A DNA stretch of 33,506 bases, from assembly GCA_965367815.1 (NCBI GenBank), contig CBDUKN010000025.1, positions 1-33,506 on the forward strand, given 5' to 3'. A program made the translations under genes and the position numbers. Source of the stretch: an uncultured Thermoprotei archaeon (GTDB lineage: Archaea > Thermoproteota > Thermoprotei > Thermofilales > B15-G2). Shown piece after piece: positions 4,469 through 27,884 of this stretch. The notes under the pieces are model-generated. The model was not told the DNA's origin and did not search any database. It worked only from the letters and a program-made list of their open reading frames with translations. Each line of letters begins with the position of its first letter. The first letter of the stretch is position 1.

Positions 4469-4490
4469 AAAATAACCTACAAGCACCCCA

Positions 4491-4504
4491 TAATTAAATT
4501 TTTC
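4491..4504 (-). promoter_or_regulatory. BRE/TATA promoter of tRNA-Glu
   Basis: GAAAAA-TTTAATTA about 23-30 nt upstream of the tRNA 5' end. Confidence 0.6.
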
Positions 4505-4538
4505 TCCTTGTACACGAAGACCCTCTAGGTATCAGCAC

Positions 4539-4688: not shown

Positions 4689-5017
4689 TAGCTACACTAA
4701 ACCATATATTCATGCCTTCTTTAAAACTCAATATATTTTTACAAACCCTATTTTCTAAAGTTTCGTCTAAGAGCTCATATGCAATAAAATAAGGTGATGT
4801 TCTCCCAGTCGAGAACTTTAACGATATTCGAGTGGTTCAGTCTACTTATAGCAGAGATTTCTCTTACGAAAACTCCGCCAAGCCTATTTTCTAATTCTTT
4901 TTTAAAAACTTGGAGCGCAGCTTTGATATTCGGGTTCTCTCGTAAATGAGCTTCATACACAATAGCAGTACTACCGGAACCGGTAGGTTTTTCAATAACC
5001 CAAGAACCTATCTCCAC
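4675..5017 (-). pseudogene. Hanks-type Ser/Thr protein kinase remnant (N-lobe to alphaE)
   Basis: GSGSTAIVY G-loop, AALQVF (catalytic K to Q), FVREI..ISRLNHSNIVKV. After a frameshift near 4800: SPYFIAYELL...IWFSVANAIA*. No HRD or DFG. Confidence 0.75.
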
Positions 5018-5131
5018 ATAAATATTGATAAAAACTATTTAATAAAGATGACTAGAGTAGCGTGAATTTCCCATTAAATATAGAAAACAGCAGAGGCAAC
5101 TTTTTCTAAGACAAAAACTACAATATTTTGT

Positions 5132-5842: not shown

Positions 5843-5856
5843 TAAATATTTCATAG

Positions 5857-5911
5857 CTAATGATGAACACGGGAACGGCCGATAGATGTGGATATCAGCT
5901 TCGGCTGATGT
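5857..5911 (+). ncRNA. C/D-box methylation guide sRNA
   Basis: C ATGATGA 5860-66; 12-nt guide; D' CCGA 5879-82; C' ATGTGGA 5886-92; 12-nt guide; D CTGA 5905-08; intergenic. Confidence 0.85.
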
Positions 5912-5935
5912 AGAGTTAGTTAAATATTTATCCTA

Positions 5936-6652
5936 GTGTTTTCGGCTACTGTGTTGCCTTTAACCGATCTCCATCAACACACTAGCTACTCTCCTTGCGG
6001 CATTGATGTTTCAATGAAAAAGAATATCGAAGTAGCAGCAGCTAAAGGACTTAGAGTAATAGCATTTACTGACCACGGATCTGTAAGTGAGCCTAAGTGG
6101 ATTAACAAGTACTTTGAAGAGCTATCTTCCTTAAAAACTGATAATGTTGAAGTATTATCTGGCATGGAAGTAGATGTCGACTTTAACGGTAATCCTGTTG
6201 TTAAAAGAGAGATTTTAAGAAAATTTGATGTCATTGTAGCAGCCATCCACAAGAAGCCTTCCGGCGTAAGCTTAGATCAGCTTTACTTGTGGTGGAAAAA
6301 GACGTTAATAGCTGTTGCTGAAGGAGGCTTTGCTTTAGTAATAGCTCATCCAACTGATATAGGTTGGTTTAAGCTAACGCCTCCTCTTGAATACTGTTTA
6401 GAAGTAATTGATGTTTTCAAAGAAAACGGTATTGCTGTAGAAATAAACTACCACCATAAAGATCCTAATGACTATTTTCTCTCACTCTGCTTAAAGAAGG
6501 GAGTTAAGCTTACTCCTACTTCTGATGCACACAAGCTAACTGAAATAGGAAACTTGGAGTGGCATAAAGCTAGAGTAGAAAACTTAGGTGTAAAAATTGA
6601 TGAAGTTAACTGGCTTACAGAAAGAGAGCTCTTCGCATATATTAGTCACTGA
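5936..6652 (+). CDS. PHP-domain phosphoesterase (HisK/YcdX-like)
   Basis: DLHQHT, FTDH, GMEVD, IAHP, SDAH. Start uncertain. Confidence 0.85.
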   Translation: MFSATVLPLTDLHQHTSYSPCGIDVSMKKNIEVAAAKGLRVIAFTDHGSVSEPKWINKYFEELSSLKTDNVEVLSGMEVDVDFNGNPVVKREILRKFDVIVAAIHKKPSGVSLDQLYLWWKKTLIAVAEGGFALVIAHPTDIGWFKLTPPLEYCLEVIDVFKENGIAVEINYHHKDPNDYFLSLCLKKGVKLTPTSDAHKLTEIGNLEWHKARVENLGVKIDEVNWLTERELFAYISH

Positions 6653-7586
6653 TATTTCTTTGAGTAAAACTGTTTAGAAGCTCGACTACTGCCGAGTTTT
6701 CTTTGAGTGGAATAGAGTCTACTGAGAGAGACTTCTTTAAAAGCACTCCGTCAACACATCCCAGTTCAACTGCTTTCTTTAGTAGTTCTTCTTCCTGTAG
6801 AGGTGTGTGCAGAAGTAGGCTATGTGAGAGTAACGATAAACCTGATACTAGAGCATATGCTCCCCAGTTCGATGTAGTTGAGACCACTAGTGCTGTGCAA
6901 GAAGTATGGCACGCTATTCCCCCCTTACAGGGACACCTACATACTCTACCATATGGCACTTTTTCTCGAATAATTTCTTCAAGAACCCCCATACCCACTT
7001 CATTTCCTCCATCACCTATCCCTATCACAGTCTTTTTCTCGGCAAGTGCCTTTTTAGCAAGAATATCTACTTTAGCATGGAGGCCGGTAACATTAATGCC
7101 GCCCATAGTGTGGTATTCTCCTTTATAGTTTGCCCCAACTTTCTCTATAAAGATCAGCGCTGAAGGATTATAGCTTTTTAAGAGTTCTTCGGCTCTGATA
7201 TTTGCTTCATTAGGATCGGTAGGAAACTCAAGTACCTTGTATCTGCCTGAAGTATCTACTGTTAGAAGAAGTTCTTTAAGCAATTCCGTGTTCTGAGGCT
7301 CGGTTAACAGTATTGTATCTATGCCTAAATTTGTAAGTGCGCGGGCAAGTACTACTGCTCCGAGAGGACCATCTGTTTCTTGTGCATATACTTTAGGCAT
7401 AATAAATCCTGTAGAAATAAACACTGTCTTATTTTCTTTAATAGCATTAAATAGTGTTAACGATGCCTTCATTATCATAGGCCGGCGATATTTCTCTCTT
7501 AAGGCGCTATAGAGTATTCTCGGAGTTTTTCTAGTATTTAAATCTAAGAGAACTATTTGGCCTAGTACTTCGAAAACTTCTTCCAC
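6642..7586 (-). CDS. D-glutamate cyclase-like (DUF4392) protein
   Basis: TGF, ETDGPLGA, IEK.G, IGIGDGGNEVGMG, SNWGAY, VDG motifs. Confidence 0.85.
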   Translation of the reverse strand: MEEVFEVLGQIVLLDLNTRKTPRILYSALREKYRRPMIMKASLTLFNAIKENKTVFISTGFIMPKVYAQETDGPLGAVVLARALTNLGIDTILLTEPQNTELLKELLLTVDTSGRYKVLEFPTDPNEANIRAEELLKSYNPSALIFIEKVGANYKGEYHTMGGINVTGLHAKVDILAKKALAEKKTVIGIGDGGNEVGMGVLEEIIREKVPYGRVCRCPCKGGIACHTSCTALVVSTTSNWGAYALVSGLSLLSHSLLLHTPLQEEELLKKAVELGCVDGVLLKKSLSVDSIPLKENSAVVELLNSFTQRNISD

Positions 7587-12060: not shown

Positions 12061-12837
12061 TTAGCTTTCAGCTATTTCCTCTAAAATCTTCTTTCCTTTA
12101 TCTGTAAGAATATACTTTACTACTATTTTGCCGCTTTCATCTTCCTCAGTCTTCATTTCAACGAGATTATATCCCCATAGGATAGCTACTAAGCTTCTCA
12201 CTGAAGCTCCAGGAAGATTTGTTTGAGACACTAAGTCTTTAAAGACTACTTCCTGGCTGCCAGATAGAGCTTTAAGTATTTTCTTCATGTTTTCGTCGAG
12301 TAGAGAAGCTAAAACACTCTTAGGGGGCTTTTTAGCAACTTCCTTCTTTTCTTTAGGTTTAGGCGGCTGCACTTTTTTCTCTTCTTCTACTTTAACTGCT
12401 GGCTTTTCACCAGCCGACGGCTTTTCAGTAACTTTTTCTTCAGGCTTCTCTAGTTCCTCTGGCTTTCTTTCTACTTCTTCCCTCTTACCTAATAGTAGTT
12501 CCTGTAGAGCCTTTGTTAGGGCCAAACTATCTTCGTAGCTTTTTGAAACAGATATTCCAGCAGTCCTCATTATTTGAAGTTCCCTAGAGAGCTTCTCTTT
12601 TTCTTCTTCAAGTCTTTTTATTTCCTCAATTAGTTCTCTTCTCATATCTTCTAATTCATCAACTTCTCTCCGCAAAGTTTCTACTCTATCTAGAAGACTT
12701 AGTATCTCGTTCTTCAATCTCTCTCTTTCATTAGTCAATCCCTTCAGTTCCAACTTTAGTATCTCAACTTGTCTGCGCAGGACGCCATATGACTTATAGT
12801 ACTCCAGAATGTCAAGGTCTTCTTTATCTAAGTTCAT
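12061..12837 (-). CDS. Coiled-coil + Lys/Glu/Pro linker + C-terminal winged-helix protein
   Basis: Heptads at about aa 15-95; linker; MKKILKAL...FKDLVSQTNL...SVRSLV..L...NLVE...YILTDKGKKIL. Confidence 0.8.
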   Translation of the reverse strand: MNLDKEDLDILEYYKSYGVLRRQVEILKLELKGLTNERERLKNEILSLLDRVETLRREVDELEDMRRELIEEIKRLEEEKEKLSRELQIMRTAGISVSKSYEDSLALTKALQELLLGKREEVERKPEELEKPEEKVTEKPSAGEKPAVKVEEEKKVQPPKPKEKKEVAKKPPKSVLASLLDENMKKILKALSGSQEVVFKDLVSQTNLPGASVRSLVAILWGYNLVEMKTEEDESGKIVVKYILTDKGKKILEEIAES

Positions 12838-13046: not shown

Positions 13047-13415
13047 ATGGAGATAATGAGACTAAACATACTCTATGTAGTAGCTGGAGTAATAGGTATT
13101 ATCGGCTCAGCACTCTGCTTTATTTCAACGCTTCTATCGCTAATAGGCATTTTAACGAAAATAGGGTCATTTTCACTGGCCTACATTAATGTAGAGCTAC
13201 TTGTCTATGACTTAATAATGCTCATTCTTAGTATAGTCAGCTTAAAGGCCTCCAATAGTTTACGCGTAGGAGGCTACGCTGTGAGAGACAATAGTATAAT
13301 ACTCATAATCATGGGCGCCGTAATGATGTTCCTTAAAGGCGGCACTGGAGCATTTCTAGTGCTCCTAGGAGGTATTTTAGGGCTAATAGCCTACCTTATC
13401 TCGGAAATAGTCTAA
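13047..13415 (+). CDS. Hypothetical small membrane protein
   Basis: Four hydrophobic segments, GA.LVLLGGILGL. Confidence 0.7.
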   Translation: MEIMRLNILYVVAGVIGIIGSALCFISTLLSLIGILTKIGSFSLAYINVELLVYDLIMLILSIVSLKASNSLRVGGYAVRDNSIILIIMGAVMMFLKGGTGAFLVLLGGILGLIAYLISEIV

Positions 13416-13498: not shown

Positions 13499-13711
13499 AT
13501 GAAATACTCTATATACTTCACACCCAAATCTCTTAGGCAGATAGAAAAACTAGACTATTATACTCAGCAAAAAATACTATATACTCTAAGCAAAGCTTCG
13601 CTAAGAGAAGAAACACGGTGTGAAGAAGTCATAGCTGGTTTCCGAGTAAACTATTATCTTGATAAAAAGAGGAGGAATTTAACAGTATTCAACTTGCAAA
13701 CAGGTATATGA
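13499..13711 (+). CDS. RelE/ParE-like small protein (solo)
   Basis: MKYSIYFTPKSLRQIEKLD...QQKI; GFRVNYYLDK...LTVF resembles the RelE pattern. Confidence 0.5.
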   Translation: MKYSIYFTPKSLRQIEKLDYYTQQKILYTLSKASLREETRCEEVIAGFRVNYYLDKKRRNLTVFNLQTGI

Positions 13712-13713
13712 AA

Positions 13714-14001
13714 TTATCTTAAGAGCCTCTCTTTAATTATGTTTATCCAGTCCTTAATATCTTCGACTAAAGCATTTCGGTCTTCAGGATCTTTTATAGG
13801 CTCATAGAGCTTATAATACTTGTTTAAAAACTGTATCCAGTCACTAATGTGTTTCCGTATATCACCGAATTCTTCTTCATCTAAGGTCTCTAAGAGTCCT
13901 TTAAGATTCTCTAAGATTACGTAAACATTTTTGTTTTCTAAGCAAGAATAGTATGCTGCTTGAATATATCTTCCAGCTTCGAAAGCCTCTATTGGATCCA
14001 T
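13714..14001 (-). CDS. Hypothetical helical protein, last gene of the multi-FtsZ operon
   Basis: GGTGA SD; 10 nt after the preceding stop. Confidence 0.75.
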   Translation of the reverse strand: MDPIEAFEAGRYIQAAYYSCLENKNVYVILENLKGLLETLDEEEFGDIRKHISDWIQFLNKYYKLYEPIKDPEDRNALVEDIKDWINIIKERLLR

Positions 14002-14011
14002 AGAGTCACCA

Positions 14012-14974
14012 TTATGCCACTTCTCCTACAAGGCTTCTAATTGTCGGAGATGTTATGCCAGCTGCAATAAACATTACTTTAGGATACTCTACTCTCTCGT
14101 CTAGTCTTAGTCCCCAGAATACTCTTTCTATACCATACCTCTCTGTAATTATTCTAGGTCCTTCACTAGCTTCTTCTAATGTTGTTTTAGGTGAAGAAAC
14201 TACGTAGAGAAGAGCTGCTTCTGCGTCTTTTAGCTCAGCGTCTAGCAACTTGTTTTTAATAGCATTTTCAGTAGCTACATTTACTTTAAGTCCAACTCCG
14301 TGCCCTACAACTCCTAGGCCCATGTCTCTTACAGCTGTAACGAAGTCAGCGTAACCTATGCTGACTATGCTCGGCTTGGTTATTAACTCTATTAGCGACT
14401 TTAGAGTATTGACAAGAATAGAGTCCATGAACTTAAAAGCGAACTGAACGGGAATGCCGCCTATTTTCTTCAACAGTAGATCGTTTAAGTTAACTATAGT
14501 TAAGTCAGCCTGCTGTAGAATTCCGTAAAGACCCAGCCTGGCGTTCTCTATGCGGTTCACTCCCTCGAAGGCAAAAGGGAAAGTCACTAGTGCTATTCTT
14601 AGTGCGTCTGGGAATCTGTTTCTTAGTTCTTCTAGTAGTACTGGTATTCCTCCGCTTGCTGTACCACCACCAAGACCACCAGTAACAATGACTACATTAG
14701 GAACTCCGATTGAGTTAATTATGCGGCTTACATCGTCTCTCATTGCTGCTTCTCCTAGACTTGGGTTTCCTCCTGTTCCATGTCCTCTTGTTATTGTTTG
14801 CCCAATTAATATTTTATTGGGTACTTTAACTGACTGTAAGTGAACAGCCTCAGTATGAACAGCAACAGCTAAAACATCTTCAGTAGCACCAACCTCATAC
14901 AACCTATTCAAAGTATTACAACCACAACCACCAACACCGACAACAACAATACTCGGTTTGGGTATTTCTCCCAT
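14012..14974 (-). CDS. ftsZ: FtsZ/tubulin-family GTPase paralog 5 (subgroup A)
   Basis: VVGVGGCGCN, GGLGGGTASG, PFAFEG..R, T7 SIGYAD. Confidence 0.9.
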   Translation of the reverse strand: MGEIPKPSIVVVGVGGCGCNTLNRLYEVGATEDVLAVAVHTEAVHLQSVKVPNKILIGQTITRGHGTGGNPSLGEAAMRDDVSRIINSIGVPNVVIVTGGLGGGTASGGIPVLLEELRNRFPDALRIALVTFPFAFEGVNRIENARLGLYGILQQADLTIVNLNDLLLKKIGGIPVQFAFKFMDSILVNTLKSLIELITKPSIVSIGYADFVTAVRDMGLGVVGHGVGLKVNVATENAIKNKLLDAELKDAEAALLYVVSSPKTTLEEASEGPRIITERYGIERVFWGLRLDERVEYPKVMFIAAGITSPTIRSLVGEVA

Positions 14975-14978
14975 CGTC

Positions 14979-15935
14979 TCACTCCTCTAAGAACTTTCTA
15001 ACAGATTCTGATTTTACCCCAGTTGCTATGAACGCTACTCTAGGCTGTGTTAGCTCCCAGCTTGGCTTAAATCCGAAGTAGACTACTTGAATATTGTATG
15101 TGGATGTAAGAGTCCCTGAGATATCGTATATATCTGACGTCTGCAGAGCTGTTTCAGTGCCTTCAATGTACACTACTGCTCCTTTACTTCCAGTTATATC
15201 AATATCACAGAACTCTTCTTTCATAGCCTCCTTGAATGCTTCTAGCACTCCTGCTGCTTCTTTGACATTTATTAGTCCTAAGCCTGACTTCATAGCTATT
15301 GCTTTAAATGAACTAAAGTCTACGTTCATTACTCCAGGTATAGGCTTTATTGACTGTAAGCCCAGTATTGCCTGGAGGCTGGCTTCTATTTTATTATCAA
15401 GTATTCTATAAGCTCTTACTAGAGGTAGTGTAGGATGCTTCTCTTTTAATTTGTCATTAAAGTGTACTACGGTTACATCAGATAAGTCTACTATAGTAGA
15501 TAAAGCCATTTTAGCATTGTTTATTCGGTTACTACTTTCTGTTTTAAACGGTATTGTTACAAAAGATATTACTAGTTTGTCGGGATAACTCTCCTTGATT
15601 TTTTCTACTAAGGCAGGATGTCCTCCGCTACCTGTTCCTCCACCTAAGCCAGAAATGATAACTACTACTTCTCCATCGGCTACTTTTTCTACTATTTTAT
15701 AGGCTTGAACTTCCATGGCTTTTCTGCCTAACTCCATTGCGCCGGCGGTAGACCTGCCTTTAGTAATGTCTTCTCCTATTAAGAGTTTGTCGTCGCATCT
15801 AGCTATTGAAAGCGCTGAAGAATCAGTGTCTACTCCAATAGTTTTTACAGGAATTCCTCTTCTCTTGACAGCAGTGAGAGCATTGAGACCCCTCCCCCCT
15901 ATGCCTACAACATATATTTTAAGTTCGGCTGACAT
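14979..15935 (-). CDS. ftsZ: FtsZ/tubulin-family GTPase paralog 4 (subgroup B)
   Basis: VVGIGGRGLN, DTD, GLGGGTGSG, PFKTE, T7 NVDFSS. Confidence 0.9.
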   Translation of the reverse strand: MSAELKIYVVGIGGRGLNALTAVKRRGIPVKTIGVDTDSSALSIARCDDKLLIGEDITKGRSTAGAMELGRKAMEVQAYKIVEKVADGEVVVIISGLGGGTGSGGHPALVEKIKESYPDKLVISFVTIPFKTESSNRINNAKMALSTIVDLSDVTVVHFNDKLKEKHPTLPLVRAYRILDNKIEASLQAILGLQSIKPIPGVMNVDFSSFKAIAMKSGLGLINVKEAAGVLEAFKEAMKEEFCDIDITGSKGAVVYIEGTETALQTSDIYDISGTLTSTYNIQVVYFGFKPSWELTQPRVAFIATGVKSESVRKFLEE

Positions 15936-15945
15936 TTTTTCACCA

Positions 15946-16185
15946 TTATTCTACAGGCTTACTAAGCAGTATTACATCTCCTACTCTTAATACATATGAA
16001 AAAGGTATATTAATTTTAGTTTCTTTTGTTCTCGGCCCTATTTTTTCTATCTTTTTAATGACTAGCTCTACACCTTCGGCGGCTTTTTCTGAAATTACTA
16101 TACTTTCAACTACTCCTACTACTTTACCGTTTACGTCTATTACTTGTCTTCCTATTATTTCTTTATCCGATATTTTTCTGTTCAT
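15946..16185 (-). CDS. PRC-barrel domain protein
   Basis: IIGRQVIDVNGKVVGVVESIVI...IPFSYVLRVGDVILL matches the archaeal PRC-barrel pattern. Confidence 0.88.
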   Translation of the reverse strand: MNRKISDKEIIGRQVIDVNGKVVGVVESIVISEKAAEGVELVIKKIEKIGPRTKETKINIPFSYVLRVGDVILLSKPVE

Positions 16186-16189
16186 TTAT

Positions 16190-17197
16190 TTACTTCACCT
16201 CAAGGTATTGATCCACTAGTGGAGACTTTACCCCTGCAGCCATTAGCATTACTCTCGGGTTATAGAGTTTCCAGTTATATCTGACTCCCCAGAATATAGT
16301 TGATATGCCGTATTTAGTTGCGAGTATACTTGTCATCTCCTCTACTTCGCTCGTCTTTAGCATTGCCTGTGTTCCCTCCATGTATATTACAGCTCCCTTT
16401 GCTCCAGTTAAGTCGGCTTCACAATAGTTTTGCTCTAAAGCGTTTTCAAACGCTGAAAATAATCTTGATCCCTGACCTACACCTACGAACCCTAGCCCGC
16501 TTCTTCTAGTAAGCCTCTCTACATTCGAGAAGTCTATGTTAACTAGTCCTGGTGTCGGTTCAGTGTACTGTAGGCTTGTCAGCGCAGTTATTACTGTCAC
16601 TAAATGCTTGTCCATTTCCCTAAATGCCTGCTGCAGGCTTCGTGAACCCATTTTCTGCTTTAATATGTCGTTGAAGTTTACTAGAATTACGTCTGCTAAA
16701 TCGAGTAGCTCTGCCAGAGCTACTTTAGCGTTTCTTACCCTCTCTGCTCCTTCTGAGGAGAAGGGAGTTGTTACTACTGCCCAGACGAGCTTATCTCCCA
16801 TGTTTTCTTTTATGTATTCTGCTAGTGCTAGTATTCCTCCTGTTCCTGTACCGCCGCCGAGACCAGCAGTAAGAATATACAGCTCAGCATCCTTGACTGG
16901 GGCAAGGACTTTGTCTACTTCGCGGCTCATTATCTCTCTACCAAGAGCAGGACTACCAGCACTACCACGACCACGAGTAACAGTCTCACCAATCAATACA
17001 CGGTACTTAGCTTTAGTCTTATAGAGTACTGCAGCATCCGTGTTTACGGCGACAGTGGGTACGTCTATTCCCGCTCTTTCAAGGTTAGAAATAGTGTTAC
17101 ATCCACATCCTCCTATACCAATGACAGCTATTTTGAGCACTGCTCTTTTAGAAACTACTTCTGCTAGTCTCTGTGCCTCTAGTATTCTACGCGCCAT
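16190..17197 (-). CDS. ftsZ: FtsZ/tubulin-family GTPase paralog 3 (subgroup B)
   Basis: IGIGGCGCN, NTD, GLGGGTGTG, PFSSEG..R, T7 NIDFSN; ATG 17197 follows AGGTGA. Confidence 0.92.
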   Translation of the reverse strand: MARRILEAQRLAEVVSKRAVLKIAVIGIGGCGCNTISNLERAGIDVPTVAVNTDAAVLYKTKAKYRVLIGETVTRGRGSAGSPALGREIMSREVDKVLAPVKDAELYILTAGLGGGTGTGGILALAEYIKENMGDKLVWAVVTTPFSSEGAERVRNAKVALAELLDLADVILVNFNDILKQKMGSRSLQQAFREMDKHLVTVITALTSLQYTEPTPGLVNIDFSNVERLTRRSGLGFVGVGQGSRLFSAFENALEQNYCEADLTGAKGAVIYMEGTQAMLKTSEVEEMTSILATKYGISTIFWGVRYNWKLYNPRVMLMAAGVKSPLVDQYLEVK

Positions 17198-17202
17198 AGA
17201 TA

Positions 17203-17496
17203 TCACCTTCTGCCGCGTCTTTCATCAATCTTCATTCTGAATGCTCTATTGAGAGCATCTATCAGCTGTTCTCTAGAGTATAGACCTCCGTGGCCTTTTG
17301 CTTCAACCCATTCAACGAACTTTACTACTGGTGGCTCAAAAGGCATTTTTTCGAGCTCACAGTACCACGCTATGTCTACTTCGCCGCTCTCTTCTTCAAG
17401 GAACTTTAAAGCTAAGTCGAGTGGGCTGGGGGCAGCAGACTGAGGAGCCGGCTTTTGTTTTTCCTCTTCCTCTTTCTTCTTTCTACCAAACAGCAT
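17203..17496 (-). CDS. Hypothetical operon protein with N-terminal hydrophobic/basic peptide (MLFGRKKK)
   Basis: GGTGA SD; tightly packed between FtsZ paralogs. Confidence 0.75.
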   Translation of the reverse strand: MLFGRKKKEEEEKQKPAPQSAAPSPLDLALKFLEEESGEVDIAWYCELEKMPFEPPVVKFVEWVEAKGHGGLYSREQLIDALNRAFRMKIDERRGRR

Positions 17497-17502
17497 ATTC
17501 TA

Positions 17503-18525
17503 TCACCCGGTAAACCCAGACATAAATTCTTCTACATAATCACATTTAACTGATGTTACAAAAACAGATACTCTCACGTCAACGATATCCCACGTGGGCC
17601 TTAGTCCCATGAATACTGTAGGTATAGCATATCTCTCAGAGAACTGTCTAGTAGTGTTTCTTATTTGAGTCATGTCCAGCAATGTTTCTCTGCCCTCAAA
17701 CATGAGTATTGCTCCTCGAGCTCCCTCGAGCCTAGACCTAGCGTAGTCGTCGGAGAGAGCTCTTATGTAGGCATCGTATATTCTGGGTCCGTCACCTACT
17801 CCGACGAAGCAGAATCCTGAGTTCTGCATTAATCTCTGTACATTAGAGAAGTCTACGTTGATTACTCCTGGGCCTATCATGGGTGATTGCATTCTTACTA
17901 GCGCCTCTACTATTCTGGCAATTCTCTTGTCCATTTCTTTGAATGCATAAGCCATGCTTACTCCCCTCAGTCTTTCTGCTAGTACGTCGTTTGCGTTAAC
18001 TATTATTGCATCTGAAACATCCATGAGTTCTCTGAGACCTATTTGAGCATTTCTTATTCTTTCTTCACCTTCTTCTTTAAAGGGTAGAGTTACTACAGCT
18101 ATTCTCAGAGCATTAGGTCTTCTTGTTCTGAGCTCTCTGAAAAGTACTGGTAGACCTCCTGTTCCTGTTCCTCCGCCTAAGCCTGCTATACCTATGACTA
18201 CATCGACGTTTTCGTCAATAGCTCCTATTGCTTCTTCAATACTCTCTTCCATTGCTTGTGCTCCTAACTCAGGTACACCTCTAGCTCCTCTGGCTTCAGC
18301 CGAAAGTCCTCCTAGAAGAACTCTTACATCACATCTTGTTCTACGCAGAACAGCAGAGTCTGTGTTCATGGCTATTAGCTTAGCGGGCAGACGGAGCCTA
18401 GATAGATTGTTGATAGCGTTGTTTCCGCAGCCTCCTACACCAACAATATTTATTTTAACGGCTGCTTCGCGCTCTTTTTGGGCCAAATACCTTAACTGCT
18501 CACGTAACCTAACCCTATATGACAT
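17503..18525 (-). CDS. ftsZ: FtsZ/tubulin-family GTPase paralog 2 (subgroup B)
   Basis: VGVGGCGNNA, NTD, GLGGGTGTG, PFKEEG..R, T7 NVDFSN. Confidence 0.92.
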   Translation of the reverse strand: MSYRVRLREQLRYLAQKEREAAVKINIVGVGGCGNNAINNLSRLRLPAKLIAMNTDSAVLRRTRCDVRVLLGGLSAEARGARGVPELGAQAMEESIEEAIGAIDENVDVVIGIAGLGGGTGTGGLPVLFRELRTRRPNALRIAVVTLPFKEEGEERIRNAQIGLRELMDVSDAIIVNANDVLAERLRGVSMAYAFKEMDKRIARIVEALVRMQSPMIGPGVINVDFSNVQRLMQNSGFCFVGVGDGPRIYDAYIRALSDDYARSRLEGARGAILMFEGRETLLDMTQIRNTTRQFSERYAIPTVFMGLRPTWDIVDVRVSVFVTSVKCDYVEEFMSGFTG

Positions 18526-18531
18526 AACCTA

Positions 18532-19521
18532 TCACCCTACAGCTTCACTAACACCCACAATATCCGAAATTATTCTAGATCTAACACCACTCGCAATAAT
18601 CATCACATGGCTTTCTCTGAGCTTGGGGTTTACTTTTAAACCCCATATTACTCTCTCAACACCGTATTTGTCGCTGACTATTCTAGGAGCTTCAGCTGCC
18701 TGCCTTAAACTAACTCCGGGAGGAGCGCTCACGTAGACTAAAGCTCCTTTTGCTGAGCTTAATTCTGCATCAAGGAGCTTTGACTCAATAGCTTTTTCGA
18801 CGGCCTTTCTTATGGACCTGTGGCGTCCGTGTCCCACAAAGCTTACTCCAGCTCTTCTAAGTAGTGTAACTAAGTCAGCAAAATCTACTCTAAGCTGCGC
18901 TCCTTTAGGCTGAAGCATGTCTACTATGCTTTCAATAGTATTTGCGAGAATAGCGTCCATCATTCTAAAGCTTTCCTGGAGAGGCAGTGTGCCATAGCGC
19001 TCAAGTAGAATGTCGTTTAGGTTCACTATAACAAAGTCTGCTACATCAAGAGTGTCCCTCAAGCCCATTTGCGTATTCTTGAGCCTCTCTATGCCCTCGT
19101 ATCTAAAGGGTATTGATACTACAGCACCCATTAGTAAGTCAGGATACTCGTCTCTCAGTTGAGCCAAGATATAAGGTGTGGCTCCGGAGCCTGTTCCTCC
19201 TCCGAAACCACATGTAATCATCAGAAAATCAGGCTTTCCTATCGCTTCAAGCACTTTGTCGATGTCTTCTTCAGCAGCCTTTCTTCCCTTAGATATATCG
19301 CCGCCTGTTCCTCTTCCTCTAGTAGTATTTTCCCCAATTTGAATTAATTGGTGAGCCTTAGTTACATTGAGAGAATTTACATCAGTGTTTACAGCGATTA
19401 GCTTTGCTTCAACATTTCTCTCGAATAGATTCGTTATAGTGTTGCAGCCACAATCGCCAACACCTACTACAACAATCTTGGTCACTACTTCTTCTAAGTC
19501 ACTACGTATAGGTCTCATCAT
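18532..19521 (-). CDS. ftsZ: FtsZ/tubulin-family GTPase paralog 1 (subgroup A)
   Basis: VVGVGDCGCN, NTD, TRGRGTGG, GFGGGTGSG, PFRYEG..R, T7 RVDFAD. Confidence 0.93.
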   Translation of the reverse strand: MMRPIRSDLEEVVTKIVVVGVGDCGCNTITNLFERNVEAKLIAVNTDVNSLNVTKAHQLIQIGENTTRGRGTGGDISKGRKAAEEDIDKVLEAIGKPDFLMITCGFGGGTGSGATPYILAQLRDEYPDLLMGAVVSIPFRYEGIERLKNTQMGLRDTLDVADFVIVNLNDILLERYGTLPLQESFRMMDAILANTIESIVDMLQPKGAQLRVDFADLVTLLRRAGVSFVGHGRHRSIRKAVEKAIESKLLDAELSSAKGALVYVSAPPGVSLRQAAEAPRIVSDKYGVERVIWGLKVNPKLRESHVMIIASGVRSRIISDIVGVSEAVG

Positions 19522-19549
19522 ATATACTCGCTATTTATTCACGCGTAAA

Positions 19550-19565
19550 TTATATATAGGTTTCG
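19550..19565 (-). promoter_or_regulatory. BRE/TATA promoter of the multi-FtsZ operon
   Basis: CGAAACC-TATATATAA about 29-37 nt upstream of the first ATG. Confidence 0.55.
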
Positions 19566-19756
19566 CTAAAGGTTCGATTGCTAAAATAAAGTCTTTAGGC
19601 TTTTAAAACACTAATTAATGTAAATTTCTTTTATACATTATATTAAGTAAGCAGTATTTTCAGCATTTCCATAAAACCTAATTACTCTGAGCTTAAATAC
19701 TCTATCGTTAAGTTTATAACTGCATTTCAGAGGAAAGAATCTTACATTACCCGAAA

Positions 19757-22113: not shown

Positions 22114-22433
22114 ATGAAAAAGGATGATAATTTAATTCGAATACTTACAAAAGTTATAGATAGTGTCGGAGAAGAAAGCATACTTTACTATACTGGAAAA
22201 AAGACAAACCTGTATTCTGGTATGGTCATATTGATGGCAATGAAATAGTTTCAGATATACTATCGATGCTTAACAAGCGTTCAGTTAATAGAGTAATAAT
22301 TGAAGAAGATGATATAGCTACTATAGGATTTGAAGACTCGGACAATAAAAAGCTAATACTTGTGGCCAAAAAGGATAGTATTTTTCTACTCTTCCAGCTA
22401 CTGGAAAAGACTATAGAAAATAGCCACCATTAA
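22114..22433 (+). pseudogene. Frameshifted small protein, possibly roadblock/longin-like
   Basis: GAGGTA SD; MKKDDNLIRIL..., frameshift near 22200, then KPVFWYG...RVIIEEDD...LILVAKKDSIFLLFQLLEK*. Confidence 0.45.
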
Positions 22434-22870
22434 CTTAATTTAATTTTCTTAACTACTTTTATGTACTCTATTTTGGTTTCGGGATATTGACCGGTTTCAT
22501 CTTTCTCATATTCTTTAACCATATCCCATATACAGAGCAGGGCTGTTGAAACGGCTACTAGAGCCTCCATTTCAACTCCTGTTTTAGCATATGCTTTAAC
22601 AGTAGCTCTAGCAATAACGCTGTCTTTTTCCAGAGTAAAGTCTACTTCTATATGGGTTAAAGGCAGTTGGTGGCATAGCGGGAGTATTTCAGGAGTCTTT
22701 TTACATGCTTGAATTGCAGCTATTTTAGATACTGTAAAAACATCTCCTTTACGCACACTGCTACTCTTAATTCTCTCTATAGTGCTTTCTTTTAGTTTTA
22801 TTTTGCCTTCAGCTACAGCTATTCTAAGAACATCCTTTTTAGCCGAAATATCTACCATTGATGCAGACAT
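22430..22870 (-). CDS. moaC: Cyclic pyranopterin monophosphate synthase MoaC
   Basis: MVDISAK, KGDVF, LPLCHQ, KTGVEMEAL, IWDMVK. Confidence 0.97.
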   Translation of the reverse strand: MSASMVDISAKKDVLRIAVAEGKIKLKESTIERIKSSSVRKGDVFTVSKIAAIQACKKTPEILPLCHQLPLTHIEVDFTLEKDSVIARATVKAYAKTGVEMEALVAVSTALLCIWDMVKEYEKDETGQYPETKIEYIKVVKKIKLS

Positions 22871-22897
22871 TTTATCACTTACAGTAGAGAATTAGAG

Positions 22898-23818
22898 TTA
22901 CTTAAAGAATGGCTCTCTCAGAGAATTTGCTTTAATGAAAAGTCTTTCTAGAGCTTTTTCTTTTTCACGTAAAGTCATATCGGATTTAATAACATGAATT
23001 AAAGACACTGTATTATCATTTCTCATTAAACAGGGCTTAAGCTTACCGTCATGAGTTAACCTAATTTTTCTACACTTCAAGCAGAAATTCGGGTTCCCAT
23101 AGGACTCTACAAGCTCTACTTTAATTCCTGTAGGAAATACGTATACAGGTCTATTTTGAAGCTCTCTTGTATATTCTTTAACGCAATGTTTTCTTAGGTA
23201 ATTTTTAATGTATTTTAGTGATACATGGTATTTACGATACTCTCTCGGATCTATTCCTAGTGGAATTAATTCGATAAAACACACGTCAGCTCCTATATTT
23301 GATGCAAAATCAATAATCTTAACGTATTCTTCGTGATTTAATTCATTTAATATAACTGTGTTTAATTTTATTCTAAGACCGTAGTCGACCGCGTTTTTTA
23401 TTCCTTCGATAACTTTTTTTAGCCCATTTACTTTAGTTATAGCTTTATAGACTTCTTCGTTTAACGAATGTAAACTAATATTTGCTCTACTGAGTCCTGC
23501 TTCTATAAGACTCTTTACTTTCTCTTTTAAGAAATAGCCGTTTGTTACTAAGGAGACTTCAGCTCCCTCTAGCTGACTTATGTTCCTCACAATATGTTCT
23601 ATGTCTTTCCTTAGCAGTGGCTCTCCTCCTGTTATTTTGAAAAACCTTATTCCTAGCTTGCGTGCTACTCTGCATACTAAAGCTATTTCTCCTACAGAGA
23701 GTTCTGTACTAGACCTACCTTCACCTTCTCTATGACAGAAAAAGCACATATAGTTGCATCTGCTTGTAACAGAGATTCTCAAGTGAGTTAAAGGTCTATT
23801 ATACTTGTCTACTAGCAT
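22898..23818 (-). CDS. moaA: GTP 3',8-cyclase MoaA
   Basis: LRISVTSRCNYMCFFCHREG, TGGEPLLR, FCLKCRKIRLTHDGKLKPCL. Confidence 0.96.
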   Translation of the reverse strand: MLVDKYNRPLTHLRISVTSRCNYMCFFCHREGEGRSSTELSVGEIALVCRVARKLGIRFFKITGGEPLLRKDIEHIVRNISQLEGAEVSLVTNGYFLKEKVKSLIEAGLSRANISLHSLNEEVYKAITKVNGLKKVIEGIKNAVDYGLRIKLNTVILNELNHEEYVKIIDFASNIGADVCFIELIPLGIDPREYRKYHVSLKYIKNYLRKHCVKEYTRELQNRPVYVFPTGIKVELVESYGNPNFCLKCRKIRLTHDGKLKPCLMRNDNTVSLIHVIKSDMTLREKEKALERLFIKANSLREPFFK

Positions 23819-25782
23819 TCATAGATCACCTTACCTGAGTCTTCGTGAACAGAGTATCCTGGAAAGTGAACAATTATTTTGTTTAAGTTACTTGGGTCGA
23901 GCATTTGCACAAGTTCACTACCTATCTTTTTATTCAATATATCTTTACTTAATATGAAATCATATATTTCTGTTGAAATTTTTGTGAAGCCTAGATTATA
24001 TTTTTCTGCAATATACCGTATTGCTACTCCTACGTCAGCTACTCCTCGAGAAATGAGGTATCCTACGGCTTCATGTGTTTTCACCTCATATTCAAATCCT
24101 CTTATCTTATTTTTAAACTCCTGCACTTTTACATCGTGTTTTTCAGCTTCCTTTTTTACGAGCTCCTCTATTAAAGCTCTTGTACCGGATCCCCTATTTC
24201 TATTTATGAATCTCAAGTTTTTCTCAATGATATCTGTGAAAGATTCTACTTTCAAGTTCTTGCAGTACACGAAGCCTTGTTCTCTTAAATACCCTCTTAC
24301 TACAACGAGATTACTGTACCCGTATTTCTCTACATAAGGAATATTGTATTCTCCCGAAGCCGGGTCATAGAGATGAGCTCCTGCTATATCAGCTATTCTT
24401 TTGCCCACTAAATTTAAGCCTGCAAGACTACCTGCGATGAGTACTTTTACAGGATATTTTTCTTTGAGTTTTTCGAGAAGATGTATTGCTAAGGGACAGT
24501 GACTTCCCGCGAAGAGCACACGTTGCTTAAATCTTTCTGAAAATAGTTTAACAGAGACTTTTGCTCCTTCAGCTAAGTACTCTGCGTTCTCGGGTACTAC
24601 TATGAAGCCATCACTGGCGTAAAGTGTATAGAGAGCGCCGCTGTGTGTGCTAAGTGGGTAGGCGTATATTCTGCCTTCTTTTTCGGCGATTACTGCTGGT
24701 ACTAGCTTAATTAAGCCTACTACTCCTCTTATAGGGGAAAGTAGCTCGGCTTCTACTTCCTTCTCAATAGTAATGGGTGATGCTCCTTGAAGTATTCTTA
24801 TCAATGGAATCAACAGTAGTTTAGCTATATTGAGGCAGGATACAGGGAATCCAGGTAGCCCGAAAAGTATTTTGTCTCCTGCTAGTGCTATAACAGTAGG
24901 CCTTCCTGGAGAAACTTTCAATCCATGAACTATTATTCCAGGCTTATATTCTGAGAAAACTCTGTATGTTAGGTCTCCGAGGCCTGCTGAAGTACCTCCT
25001 ATTGTTACTACAATGTCGCTGTCTTTAAGAGCAGAGTTTACAGCGCTCTTTATTTCACTATAGCTGTCTTTAACTATTTTAAATCGCTTTACTTCTGCTC
25101 CAGCTTCCTTTAGTGCAGCTGCTATCATAAATGAATTTGAGTCATATATTTTCCCGTATTCGAGCTCTATTCCAGGCTCTGCTAATTCGTTTCCTATAGG
25201 TATTACTGTTACACGGGGCCTAGAGTATACTTTGACTTTTGTTACTCCTGCCGAAATTAGTACTCCTATGAGCTGGGGGGTTACTACTTCGCCTTTCCAA
25301 GCAACTACTTCTCCTTCAGCGACGTCTGACCCAACTAAATCTATATTCTCTCCTTTGGCTACTCTTCGATAAATTTCTACTTCTGTATGAGAAGTTTTTC
25401 GAGTATATTCTACTGGAATTACAGCGTCTGCGGGGTAGGGTACAGGAGCCCCTGTATCTATTTCAGCGCACTCTCCCTTCTTGAGTTCGAAAGGAGGCGC
25501 CTCACCTACTTTAACTGCGTTTACAAGCTTTAGTTTTACAGGCCTATCCTCGTAGGCAAGCGAAGTGTCTGAGGAAAAAACAGCGTAGCCGTCCATTAGT
25601 GCTCTGCTAAAGGGCGGAACAGGGCTTACTGCTCTAATATTTTCTGCAAGTACTCTCCCTAGTGCTTTTTCCACAAGAACTTCTTCTACACGAGGCTTTC
25701 TTGTCTCAGCAATTTTATAAAGTATTTTAAAAACTTCTTCTAAACTAGCTAGCTTTCTATAAACTTTCCTATATTCTCCCAT
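23812..25782 (-). CDS. moeA: Molybdopterin biosynthesis MoeA fused to a C-terminal PBP/LysR-substrate-binding domain
   Basis: PPFSRALMDGYAV, GGTSAG, GLPGFPVS; C-terminal GSHC, FINRNRGSGTR, THEAVG. Confidence 0.95.
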   Translation of the reverse strand: MGEYRKVYRKLASLEEVFKILYKIAETRKPRVEEVLVEKALGRVLAENIRAVSPVPPFSRALMDGYAVFSSDTSLAYEDRPVKLKLVNAVKVGEAPPFELKKGECAEIDTGAPVPYPADAVIPVEYTRKTSHTEVEIYRRVAKGENIDLVGSDVAEGEVVAWKGEVVTPQLIGVLISAGVTKVKVYSRPRVTVIPIGNELAEPGIELEYGKIYDSNSFMIAAALKEAGAEVKRFKIVKDSYSEIKSAVNSALKDSDIVVTIGGTSAGLGDLTYRVFSEYKPGIIVHGLKVSPGRPTVIALAGDKILFGLPGFPVSCLNIAKLLLIPLIRILQGASPITIEKEVEAELLSPIRGVVGLIKLVPAVIAEKEGRIYAYPLSTHSGALYTLYASDGFIVVPENAEYLAEGAKVSVKLFSERFKQRVLFAGSHCPLAIHLLEKLKEKYPVKVLIAGSLAGLNLVGKRIADIAGAHLYDPASGEYNIPYVEKYGYSNLVVVRGYLREQGFVYCKNLKVESFTDIIEKNLRFINRNRGSGTRALIEELVKKEAEKHDVKVQEFKNKIRGFEYEVKTHEAVGYLISRGVADVGVAIRYIAEKYNLGFTKISTEIYDFILSKDILNKKIGSELVQMLDPSNLNKIIVHFPGYSVHEDSGKVIYEC

Positions 25783-26974
25783 ACAGTTCTACCTCTACTA
25801 CTTCTCCTTCATCAAAACCCTCAAGATCCTCGGGAACAACAACAAAACCATTTCCCAAAACTAAGCTCCTAAGAGAACCTGATCCCCCTACAGTTAGAGG
25901 CTCGGCATAAAGACTACCATTTTTAGTAAAAACTTTGACTCTAGCAAATCCTCTGAAACCTAGCTTAACAGTAATCTTTTTCGTAAGCTTGGCTCTAACA
26001 GTAGGTCTAGGCAAATACTTTACGCCGATCCACTTCTCTAAAATCGGTTTAACCACTAGCTCTAAGCCAGCTAAAGCAGCTACAGGCAACCCGCTTAAGT
26101 TTACTACTAGCTTTCCTTTAATAGAGGAAAGAGCTGTAGTTTTGCCCGGCTGAATAGCTATTCCATGTATATGTGCCTCAGGCCCTAGTTTCTTGACGGC
26201 TTTAACGCTATAGTCTTTTGACCCGAGAGAGCTGCCGCCACATAAGACTACTATATCGTTTTCTTCGAGAAGCTCTTTTAAGAGACTAGCTATTTCATGG
26301 GGGTCATCTCCGGCTATGAGAATTTCTTTAACATCGATAGCATGTTCATAAAGCCATCCTTCAACTATTCTTCTAGTAAATGGCACTGCTTTTCCTCGCA
26401 CAAACTCGTCTCCAGTGCATATAACTGAAGCCTTTATGTATAGCACGGGAACCGCATCAAAACCTAGAGCCTCCAAGGCAGCTAAGTGCCAAGGTCTAAT
26501 TAAGTCTCCTCGCCTTAAGATTACATCTCCTTTAGCTAACTCCTCTCCGGGAAGAGAGACGTTTTCATATTTGCTTACTTTCCTGTAGATCATTATCTCA
26601 CTATTTCTCCTAACTGTATCCTCTACTCTAACAACAGAGTCTGCTCCCTCAGGGAGAAAGCCTCCGGTCTCTATGGCCACTCCTTCTCCAGACCCTATCC
26701 TCACTGAAATTTTTTCTCCAGAGTATATGTGATATGGAAGGAGCTTAATTAGAACGGGACTAGTGTAAGAAGCTTCTTCACAATCCTCGCTTCTGACAGC
26801 ATAGCCATCCATGGTTGCCTTCATGTATGGAGGAAAATTCTTGTTTGAGACAATGTCTGCTCCACATATTTTATTTAAAGCATCTTCGAGGGACAAATGT
26901 ACCATACAGAAATCTCTTTTAAGCAGATTAGATACTTTTTCTACAACATCGTGCACTCTAGTTAATTTCCACAT
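25769..26974 (-). CDS. moeA: Molybdopterin molybdotransferase MoeA
   Basis: ATMDGYAV, TGDE, GGSSLGSKD, PGK, LSGLPVAA. Confidence 0.93.
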   Translation of the reverse strand: MWKLTRVHDVVEKVSNLLKRDFCMVHLSLEDALNKICGADIVSNKNFPPYMKATMDGYAVRSEDCEEASYTSPVLIKLLPYHIYSGEKISVRIGSGEGVAIETGGFLPEGADSVVRVEDTVRRNSEIMIYRKVSKYENVSLPGEELAKGDVILRRGDLIRPWHLAALEALGFDAVPVLYIKASVICTGDEFVRGKAVPFTRRIVEGWLYEHAIDVKEILIAGDDPHEIASLLKELLEENDIVVLCGGSSLGSKDYSVKAVKKLGPEAHIHGIAIQPGKTTALSSIKGKLVVNLSGLPVAALAGLELVVKPILEKWIGVKYLPRPTVRAKLTKKITVKLGFRGFARVKVFTKNGSLYAEPLTVGGSGSLRSLVLGNGFVVVPEDLEGFDEGEVVEVELYGRI

Positions 26975-27038
26975 TTACTTCCTTAGACTCTACCAGTAGC
27001 CAGATATAAGCGTTATATCTCTCCGGAAACAACGCTCC

Positions 27039-27884
27039 CTACACGTATTCTTCTTCGTGTGTAGCTTCACGCTTGTATTCCTCAATAAATTCTCTTAGCG
27101 CAGCAAAAGCTTTCTCTCTGTTTTCGGCCGAAGCCGACGCCACTATAATAGTATCGCCAGGCACTAATGTTCCCGACGACAGCATCACATCTATTTTCAC
27201 ACCATATTTTAAAGATACTTTCTCTGCAATAGCCTTTAGAGAATCCCTGTTAATACCTGCTTTAAACCAAAGCACTCTTTTCCCTTTAGACACTTCCTTG
27301 ACTTTTCCTATGAAAATGCAGATAGCGGGGTCTCTAGTAGACAGAATTTTCTTCATAAAAAGCTGGACATCTTCTATGTCCAGTTTATCTTTTGCCAAAA
27401 CTTCTGCTTTACCCCAGTGAGAGACACCTCTCAGTGTTTCAAGGGCATGTTCAGCTACAGGAAGAATAATTTCTTTCAAAGCCTGCCTAACTGCCGTTGG
27501 TTTACCTGGAACCACGAAAACTAGAGAAGAGCCAATAGTGCCCGCTAAAGCTCTAGACAAAATAGTTTTTACACCCACATCTTTGAAAGATATATTTCTA
27601 AATATTTCGCCGAAACCCTCCAGCTTTTTTTCTAATAGAGGCTCAATAGCCTCTACCGAGAGATCTCTAGGCCCTAGCCCTGTTCCTCCACAGATAACTA
27701 CTATATCTGAGCGTAAAGACTCTTCAAGCACTTTAATTTGAATAAGTCTCTTCTCATTCGGAACAACATAATGACTTATTTCACCTACATGGTCGCCTAC
27801 AGCCTCCTTGACTACATGAAGAATACTGTCAAGAGACCTGTCAATAAAGACTCTATCACTTACTATTATCAGCGAAAGTCTCAC
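27039..27884 (-). CDS. moaB: MoaB/MogA domain fused to a divergent MoaE-like domain
   Basis: IVSDR, GGTGLGPRD, LEGFGEIFR, LSRA.AG, PGKP; C-terminal IFIGKVK...GTLVPGD...NREKAF..L.FIEEYK. Confidence 0.85.
   Translation of the reverse strand: MRLSLIIVSDRVFIDRSLDSILHVVKEAVGDHVGEISHYVVPNEKRLIQIKVLEESLRSDIVVICGGTGLGPRDLSVEAIEPLLEKKLEGFGEIFRNISFKDVGVKTILSRALAGTIGSSLVFVVPGKPTAVRQALKEIILPVAEHALETLRGVSHWGKAEVLAKDKLDIEDVQLFMKKILSTRDPAICIFIGKVKEVSKGKRVLWFKAGINRDSLKAIAEKVSLKYGVKIDVMLSSGTLVPGDTIIVASASAENREKAFAALREFIEEYKREATHEEEYV

Follow-up and report, generated by a model that had tools for sequence, protein, structure and literature searches.

The active site of an FtsZ or tubulin polymer becomes complete through the T7 loop which the subunit above the nucleotide contributes, and the T7 residues concerned are N207, D209 and D212 in the numbering of Escherichia coli FtsZ. 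The motif NxDxx[D/E] is given as the FtsZ hydrolysis motif in a passage of PMC12583498, and a passage of PMC13394414 (Sci Adv 2026) presents the interface of beta-tubulin K254 as dead and that of alpha-tubulin E254 as live. The same passage describes AtubA/AtubB, the mini-microtubule tubulins of Asgard archaea, as an operon-encoded stable heterodimer with one GTPase-defective interface, and its authors hold that the one-dead-interface design arose convergently, more than once. The reason for which the alpha/beta-tubulin heterodimer has one GTPase-dead interface is an open question. Here we describe a locus in a contig of 33,506 nucleotides from an uncultured, heat-loving Thermoprotei archaeon (CBDUKN010000025.1; the whole stretch is called the window below), five FtsZ-like genes of which divide the T7 residues among themselves. 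The conserved complementary T7 partition is real, and the set consists of FtsZ/tubulin paralogues with differentiated interfaces.

Prosthecobacter BtubA/BtubB are a pair from one operon that was acquired horizontally and has an accessory gene, and both this pair and the chloroplast FtsZ1/FtsZ2 keep the catalytic T7 residues in at least canonical form. Published papers describe a chloroplast division ring built of two FtsZ proteins (PMC8142252), mention BtubAB beside the Asgard pair (PMC13394414), tie PRC-barrel proteins to FtsZ/SepF division in Haloferax (PMC10936438; preprint 10.1101/2023.03.28.534543), and treat CetZ as additional FtsZ/tubulin-family paralogues that are found beside canonical FtsZ and presumably function away from the division ring (PMC9723716). 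As for the lineages concerned here, Korarchaeota are listed simply as FtsZ-positive in a passage of PMC4164004, ESCRT-III is given as absent in Korarchaeota and Thermoproteales in one of PMC8178401, 'non-canonical FtsZ-like sequences' of Korarchaeia are mentioned with their role undetermined in one of PMC9723716, and one of Santana-Molina 2023 (PMC9871819) mentions FtsZs of GTDB Crenarchaeota that are divergent and do not branch with the canonical groups. Our literature search found no paper on the operon described below or on its T7 partition; an earlier description in supplementary trees is possible.

The window genome (G000; 2.45 Mb, 99.4% complete) carries across positions 14012-19521 five intact minus-strand open reading frames (ORFs) of the FtsZ family in tandem. 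Together with three short genes they stand in the order A1-B1-s97-B2-PRC-B3-A2-s95, and the features of the locus are as follows (aa, amino acids; nt, nucleotides).

18532..19521, minus strand: A1, FtsZ-like paralogue, 329 aa; T7 loop RVDFAD at 18874-18891, with Arg for Asn and both Asp kept
17503..18525, minus strand: B1, FtsZ-like paralogue, 340 aa; T7 loop NVDFSN at 17842-17859, with Asn for the last Asp
17203..17496, minus strand: s97, 97 aa, family not recognised, directly after B1
16190..17206, minus strand: B2, FtsZ-like paralogue, 338 aa; T7 loop NIDFSN at 16523-16540
15946..16185, minus strand: PRC-barrel protein, 79 aa, between B2 and B3 (Pfam PF05239)
14979..15935, minus strand: B3, FtsZ-like paralogue, 318 aa; T7 loop NVDFSS at 15309-15326, with Ser for the last Asp
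14012..14974, minus strand: A2, FtsZ-like paralogue, 320 aa; T7 loop SIGYAD at 14345-14362, with the last Asp alone kept
13714..14001, minus strand: s95, 95 aa, family not recognised, 10 nt past the A2 stop
19522..19756, minus strand: AT-rich spacer of 235 nt upstream of A1, the putative promoter region of the operon, with a TATA-like TATATATAA at 19550-19558, about 30 nt before the ATG
13661..13680, minus strand: T-rich stretch CCTCCTCTTTTTATC, about 35 nt past the s95 stop, the putative end of the operon

Successive spacers measure 6, 6, -4, 4, 10, 4 and 10 nt, so that B1 starts 6 nt past the A1 stop, the B2 start overlaps the s97 stop by 4 nt and A2 starts 4 nt past the B3 stop; judging from this spacing, the eight genes probably form one tightly packed operon.

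A sequence-only reading of the same stretch had placed the five T7 loops, and the reverse-complement translation of the five 18-nt intervals gives RVDFAD, NVDFSN, NIDFSN, NVDFSS and SIGYAD exactly, while pairwise HMMER alignments set the hexapeptides of A1, B1 and A2 on 'nvdfad' of Methanocaldococcus jannaschii FtsZ1 (PDB 1w58). The losses which that reading listed are likewise borne out: the last Asp is gone in B1, B2 and B3, A1 and A2 are without the Asn, and A2 is also without the first Asp. Full NxDxxD is found in no single paralogue of the window, yet it is present across the set, which is the pattern that would be expected of the complementary degeneration of an active site formed at an interface.

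The same division is seen in relatives of the cluster, which come from G018 (same genus as the window genome), G032 (same order, other family), G017 (other order of the same class), G287 (other class) and three Korarchaeum-type loci, the B1 of which is 90-97% identical to P0015, a protein named by NCBI as one of Ca. Korarchaeum cryptofilum. A1 orthologues have DxxD in 11/11 and Asn in 0/11, with Arg or His in its place ([RH]xDFxD); among A2 orthologues the last Asp is kept in 18/18 and both the Asn and the first Asp in 0/18 ([SG][IV][SG][FY]xD). On the B side NxDxxN occurs in 21 of the 22 B1 and in all nine B2 orthologues (9/9), and NVDFx[VIS] in all seven of B3 (7/7). Taken together, the last Asp is kept in 29/29 A types and absent in 37/38 B types, and canonical FtsZ references show NxDxxD in 38/38. 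The sequence-only reading had proposed conservation among orthologues as a check of its idea, and each T7 variant proved to be fixed within its orthogroup, across the Korarchaeum-type genomes and three other lineages. These variants are identical or near-identical in lineages whose orthologues share just 36-64% identity.

A full-library HMMER search with a B-clade profile returned 4722 proteins at E<=1e-30, and NxDxx[DE] is carried by 129 of the best 150. Non-canonical proteins that stand high among these best 150 repeat the states of the orthogroups and include as new representatives P0248 (B3-type NVDFAM), P0253 (A1-type RVDFPD), P0256 (A2-type GISYAD) and P0261 (A1-type HVDWAD), and the same T7 states were also recovered in wider word-index searches. 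Between G000 and G018 the ratio of nonsynonymous to synonymous substitution rates (dN/dS) is 0.019 for A1, 0.020 for B1, 0.024 for B2, 0.048 for B3 and 0.059 for A2, values that are approximate as dS exceeds 1 and is saturated in this comparison. All five genes are under strong purifying selection.

The paralogues were placed in a quick IQ-TREE phylogeny (LG+C20+F+G4, SH-aLRT support, no outgroup) of 107 rows, 103 of them different. It leaves out the KorC rows, which nearly duplicate KorA and KorB, fragments shorter than 250 aa, including the G032 A1 fragment with RVDFPD, and P0121-P0125, P0131 and P0241, near-identical to the window genes; some canonical references in it are loci from a B1-alignment pattern search, which picked generic T1/T4 patterns and canonical FtsZ loci only. 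Canonical FtsZ, bacterial and archaeal, forms a group of 38 rows (SH-aLRT 100) on a stem of length 0.81. The A clade unites A1 and A2 (29 rows, 92), with A1 (11 rows, 96) and A2 (18 rows, 94) as its orthogroups. The B clade comprises B1, B2, B3 and X (40 rows, 99), with support of 99 for B1 (22 rows), 97 for B2 (9 rows), 92 for B3 (7 rows) and 95 for X, a degenerate long-branch pair of 2 rows from G017 and G287 (branches 1.48 and 1.64). In all four orthogroups in which G032 is represented (B1, B2, B3 and A2; 4/4), the G032 copies group with the Korarchaeum-type ones and not with those of G000 and G018; since G032 is of the same order as G000, this suggests a horizontal transfer of the whole operon.

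Two further proteins branch at the base of the orthogroups: P0137 (HVDFAD; 54% identity to A1 and 47% to A2) at that of A1, and P0008 (NVDFHN) at that of B1. Both are recorded on a 12558-nt contig and may point to a lineage whose A+B set is less complex. The tandem double-FtsZ proteins P0249 (744 aa), P0250 (826 aa) and P0252 (840 aa), which rank among the top matches of the HMMER search, were considered as A-B 'Rosetta stone' fusions and ruled out, for both of their halves have a canonical NxDxxD T7 and lie outside the A/B family.

Membership of the FtsZ family is clear for all five proteins, which match Pfam Tubulin/FtsZ (PF00091) with 109.4-127.5 bits against a cut-off of 33 (E 1e-36 to 4e-31); B1, B2, B3 and A2 share 29-43% identity with A1, and HMMER matches to M. 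jannaschii FtsZ1 reach E 6e-55 for A1, 6e-46 for B1 and 8e-54 for A2. The five paralogues are not canonical FtsZ. Their scores on NCBIfam TIGR00065, whose equivalog cut-off for canonical cell-division FtsZ is 295.2 bits, are all below it (A1 236.4, B1 179.9, B2 194.7, B3 165.5, A2 216.6), and the canonical FtsZ of cluster-bearing genomes, taken as a control, score 333.2, 377.5 and 350.4 bits. The canonical T7 motif NxDxx[D/E] is present in 0/5 of them, and all five end with the globular domain, with no C-terminal linker or tail, the alignments of A1, B1 and A2 reaching about residue 340-346 of the 364-aa 1w58 chain. A1 matches the PDB chains 3zid, 4b46 and 4b45 at E 4e-12 to 9e-10, against 6e-55 for FtsZ; we take these chains to be CetZ structures, although their PDB names do not say so. 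As far as chains presumed to be CetZ can tell, A1 is thus far closer to FtsZ than to CetZ, and the tree was built without CetZ sequences. Identity of the A types with FtsZ1 was considered as well, as 'FtsZ 1' of Pyrococcus abyssi is the nearest named canonical relative of A2 (38% identity); the assignment was not made, because A, B and canonical proteins form three separate groups in a tree without an outgroup.

The sequence-only reading further had the GTP-binding elements kept in all five proteins, which holds for the three that it named, the T4 loop and the PFxxE[GS]xxR and [FY]xxxD motifs, but calls for qualification in T2, in T3 and among the orthologues. Within the window T4 reads GGGTG[ST]G in all paralogues except A2 (GGGTASG), and none of the five is without PFxxE[GS]xxR or [FY]xxxD. 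The T2 of A2 reads HTE where NTD would be canonical, as it does in 17/17 of its orthologues with a complete T2 (one row is truncated there), and GGGTASG recurs in 17/18. The window copy of B3 is altered in T1 (GGRGLN) and T3 (GRSTAG); its orthologues have an altered T3 loop and, in 4/7, a replaced T4 Thr, which is also replaced in 4/11 A1 orthologues. B1 orthologues keep NTD in 22/22 and exchange the H7 Asp for Asn in 12/22, whereas B2 orthologues have a fully canonical pocket (NTD 9/9, GGGTGTG 9/9, FRxMD 9/9), the most canonical of the five. The pocket of X is degraded throughout, with the T4 Thr, the T5 Phe/Gly, T6 and the H7 Asp lost. GTP pockets are not uniformly kept among orthologues: the most canonical are those of B2 and B1, and the altered ones those of A1, A2 and B3. 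Canonical pockets in proteins with a dead T7, together with the DxxD loop of A1, the pocket of which is relaxed in some lineages, therefore suggest an arrangement of the alpha/beta-tubulin kind.

Gene order is conserved along with the T7 states. All three Korarchaeum-type loci reproduce A1-B1-s97-B2-PRC-B3-A2, and a homologue of s95 lies at a distance of about 1 kb. In G032 the cluster falls on two contigs, which together carry all five paralogues, s97 and s95; G017 and G287 have a reduced A1-B1-s-X-A2, in which the degenerate paralogue X takes the place of B2-PRC-B3. In the Korarchaeum-type loci, G017 and G032, A1 and B1 abut or overlap, as do B3 (or X) and A2, which suggests two coupled pairs. 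The cluster has a patchy distribution. Matches to B1 at E<=1e-10 were found in 4/120 genomes in a scan of the class, each with at least four paralogues. In a phylum sample of 401 genomes three have the cluster, and the other 90 with matches carry 1-3 copies of about 30-37% identity and mostly canonical length. A lone paralogue of the cluster was seen neither in the 120 class genomes nor in the 401-genome phylum sample.

A further, incomplete cluster B2'-B3'-A2' lies on another contig of the window genome (C1, minus strand, positions 4145-7044 of locus L009, G000:C1:168000-180000), and G018 has it as well. Its proteins of 335, 309 and 323 aa have the T7 loops NIDFSN, NVDFNV and SISYAD, and A1, B1, s97 and PRC are missing from it. 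A2 and A2' are 100% identical over nt 61-360, and B2 and B2' 98-100% over nt 181-360, with 50-78% elsewhere; these tracts look gene-conversion-like.

Whether canonical division genes accompany the cluster differs between genomes. G461 and G462, both Korarchaeum-type, have seven PF00091 matches each (five in the cluster and two canonical) and SepF; G287 has five (four in the cluster, one canonical) and SepF; G032 with five and G017 with four have those of the cluster only, and SepF was not found in them; G000 has eight, all in its two clusters and none of canonical length, and SepF was not found. The two canonical FtsZ of G461 are proteins of 423 aa (L136:916-2187, T7 NVDLND, TIGR00065 333.2 bits) and 400 aa (L137:288-1490, T7 NVDLAD, 377.5 bits), and its SepF lies at G461:C69:31469-31702. 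The cluster supplements the canonical division genes in genomes that have them and is the only FtsZ-family set in those without. Its position beside two canonical FtsZ and SepF makes it an extra module in Korarchaeum-type genomes and not simply the divisome, and this coexistence makes a function outside division, or one in addition to it, just as probable as a function in the divisome. In G000 the SepF model PF04472 gave 0 matches, with a control positive in seven genomes (FtsA was not searched for), and CdvA was not found; nor was Snf7, though its control was weak (Sulfolobus, below the cut-off), so that the absence of ESCRT-III is weakly supported.

The sole actin-family gene of G000 lies at G000:C9:14988-15815 (L047), in an open frame of 424 aa with a PF00022 E of 6e-13 on the matched part, and may be crenactin-like. 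In G287 a Roadblock/LC7 ORF of 121 aa (L133, G287:C37, 6692-7054, minus strand; PF03259, E 9.8e-8) is directly upstream of the A1-like gene; none was seen beside the other clusters inspected.

Among the accessory genes, the 79-aa ORF is a member of PF05239 with 37.2 bits against a cut-off of 21.2 (E 3e-9; whole-genome scan match C25:15964-16173). A PRC-barrel ORF has the equivalent place in the Korarchaeum-type loci (L128:12329-12583, E 4e-8), and a second PRC-barrel gene exists elsewhere in G000. The s97 protein has MxLFRRKK at its N-terminus, a linker that varies and is either Pro-rich or charged, and a domain of about 65 aa; it had no match in Pfam or NCBIfam and no usable one in the ESM Atlas, and its phmmer homologues follow B1 in G018, G032, G017 and the Korarchaeum-type loci (E 7e-54 to 7e-14). 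Pfam matches of s95 were sub-threshold only, and by phmmer it has homologues close to the cluster in G018 at E 2e-52, in G032 at 5e-15 and in Korarchaeum-type loci at 4e-8 and 9e-8.

These observations are best explained, in our opinion, if the locus provides a filament system of its own, derived from FtsZ, in which the five tail-less paralogues function only as a set. Obligate co-function would fit with the one operon with spacers of at most 10 nt, the gene order conserved in the Korarchaeum-type loci and the lack of a lone paralogue in the genomes scanned. The interpretation offered by the sequence-only reading, an ordered heteropolymer with hydrolytic and non-hydrolytic interfaces, is partly supported. 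To the more specific proposal that the five co-assemble, with the interfaces under B subunits non-hydrolytic and those under A1, and possibly A2, hydrolytic, we would give about an even chance. By this proposal A1 would contribute the sole DxxD, A2 only the last Asp, and B1-B3 the Asn together with the first Asp. The assemblies would be mixed protofilaments or else stable hetero-oligomers, probably with an A1-B1 pair and a B3-A2 pair as their smallest units. The nucleotide under a B subunit would stay unhydrolysed and structural, like the N-site GTP under beta-tubulin K254; that under A1, perhaps also A2, would be hydrolysable, like the E-site GTP under alpha-tubulin E254; and B1 and B2, with the most canonical pockets, may provide the exchangeable, hydrolysable sites. 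The PRC-barrel protein, s97 and s95 are candidate accessory or tethering factors, which could replace the missing C-terminal tail and the link to SepF.

The boldest form of this proposal, which we regard as unlikely when taken as a whole, would be an obligate ordered heteropolymer, made of A1-B1 and B3-A2 heterodimer protofilaments with an exchangeable B2 or shaped as a multi-protofilament tubule, with hydrolysis only under A1 and structural nucleotides under B. The tubulin-like design of 'one live, one dead interface' would then have originated independently for a third time, now within the FtsZ branch. The polymer would have a tether set of its own (PRC-barrel, s97, s95), be encoded by an operon mobile among hyperthermophilic archaea, and serve as a cytokinetic or shape filament in Thermoprotei without FtsZ, SepF and Cdv.

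Several points limit the case for co-assembly. What is observed is the gene content, the T7 states with their conservation, the close packing, the purifying selection and the distribution among genomes; co-assembly, pairing, hydrolytic interfaces and accessory roles are inferred. A complex prediction for A1 and B1 with 2 GTP gave scores of 0.00 and 0.00, with controls not run, and weighs neither way. The long-branch B1 orthologue of G287 has SIDFSD, with the last Asp kept and the Asn lost, and the A/B partition of T7 is therefore not absolute. The T7 tallies overstate the number of independent events, because the rows of the quick tree include kin and near-identical sequences. A fixed order of five subunits is not universal, as G017 and G287 are without B2 and have X in the place of B2-PRC-B3; stoichiometries may be unequal, given a second G000 cluster with only B2', B3' and A2'; and where canonical FtsZ coexists, mixed polymers with it or separate roles for single paralogues are possible.

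That the five are independent, sub-functionalised homopolymers is possible, if on the unlikely side. Each protein would then form a filament of its own, T7 would tune its hydrolysis and the shared operon would mean co-regulation, with B proteins as stable scaffolds of very slow or dead GTPase and A1 as a dynamic filament, comparable to the roles of multiple CetZ or of FtsZ1/FtsZ2 in other archaea. FtsZ mutants of E. coli at D212 assemble without GTP hydrolysis, and dead-T7 homopolymers are for this reason physically plausible. The age and distinctness of each orthogroup speak for such homopolymers, as do the varying number of paralogues (4 or 5 per cluster, with the extra B2'-B3'-A2' of G000) and the canonical FtsZ beside the cluster in Korarchaeum-type genomes. 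Against them stand the conserved order with its abutting or overlapping junctions and the fact that no paralogue was found alone in the scanned genomes; moreover, the losses are complementary and not random, since A types keep the last Asp and lose the Asn, and B types do the reverse.

It is quite unlikely, in our estimate, that A1, perhaps with B1 or B2, is the working polymer and the others are sub-stoichiometric nucleators, end-caps or stabilisers acting through a dead T7 face or a degraded pocket, in analogy to gamma-tubulin or truncated FtsZ paralogues. A polymer end can be terminated or stabilised through a subunit whose T7 or pocket is dead, the pockets of B3 and X are the most degraded, and a paper deals with truncated bacterial FtsZ paralogues that 'tune' division (PMC13732431), which we count in favour of such a role. 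One tightly packed operon argues instead for similar dosage, and B1 and B2 are conserved as strongly as A1 (dN/dS 0.02). Decay, by which the T7 variants would be remnants of redundant duplicates under relaxed selection and without specific function, has a nearly negligible chance and is rejected as drift because T7 states are conserved per orthogroup and dN/dS is 0.019-0.059 in five intact frames, the degenerate look and long branches of X notwithstanding, and the 36-64% identity within orthogroups, across which the variants hold, argues also against its variant of a recent transfer from a single source.

Returning to co-assembly of the five paralogues, it would be logical to compare the locus with the systems named at the beginning. 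As in alpha/beta-tubulin, one partner keeps the T7 acid (E254; the last Asp of A types) and the other does not (K254; Asn, Ser, Val or Ile of B types), which in tubulin leaves one longitudinal interface live and one dead. The window set, any heterodimers of which are putative, differs from it in being FtsZ-like and no tubulins, as its best PDB matches are FtsZ (E 6e-55), in having five members and not two, and also in that A types lose the conserved Asn and A2 the first Asp. With AtubAB, as the passage cited describes it, the set shares paralogues that are neighbours in an operon, with genes that abut or overlap, and one interface predicted to be GTPase-defective; AtubAB are true tubulins whose stable heterodimer was shown biochemically, whereas our set is of the FtsZ branch, has five members, a PRC-barrel and small genes, and is uncharacterised. 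Chloroplast FtsZ1/FtsZ2 and BtubAB are a precedent for co-assembling paralogue pairs, of two members each and without PRC-barrel, s97 or s95.

Archaeal FtsZ1/FtsZ2 with SepF and CdpB resemble the locus in bringing several FtsZ paralogues together and in the link of a PRC-barrel protein to FtsZ function; unlike the window set, they retain NxDxxD and a C-terminal tail, score above the TIGR00065 cut-off and rely on SepF. The canonical FtsZ pair of Korarchaeum-type genomes fits these FtsZ1/FtsZ2 features, whereas the window five fail the cut-off and are tail-less, and SepF was not found in G000. CetZ are similar as extra family paralogues that coexist with canonical FtsZ, and differ in that A1 matches FtsZ far better than the chains presumed to be CetZ. 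The 'non-canonical FtsZ-like sequences' of Korarchaeia and the divergent FtsZs of GTDB Crenarchaeota are most likely the same proteins as those of our cluster; five orthogroups, an operon with PRC, s97 and s95 and a complementary T7 are not described in the passages of PMC9723716 and PMC9871819 considered here.

If co-assembly with split T7 residues is true, the FtsZ branch would offer a further independent case of the one-dead-interface design and a clean example of how complementary degeneration may lock duplicated subunits into an obligate hetero-assembly. It would also be an experimentally tractable one, as the proteins are small, tail-less and thermostable and should be expressible from one operon, and it would constitute a candidate cytoskeletal or division system for the Thermoprotei lineages where canonical FtsZ, SepF, CdvA and Snf7 were not found.

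The locus is flanked by housekeeping genes, among them those for pyruvate kinase and the molybdenum cofactor. A plus-strand membrane-protein ORF (13047-13415) follows downstream of the operon, and past it a 258-aa protein at 12061-12837 of the minus strand has a long coiled coil, with weak matches to ZapB, SMC and similar families, all below the cut-off, and a weak C-terminal match to a winged helix (HTH_45, E 0.025). The molybdenum-cofactor run covers 22430-27884 of the minus strand and includes MoaC, a MoaA-like radical SAM protein, a MoeA-PBP-like fusion of 656 aa, a second MoeA and a MoCF_biosynth-MoaE fusion. At 425-1810 of the plus strand the window encodes a radical SAM protein of 461 aa with SPASM and PqqD-like domains, of a kind known from peptide-maturation systems.

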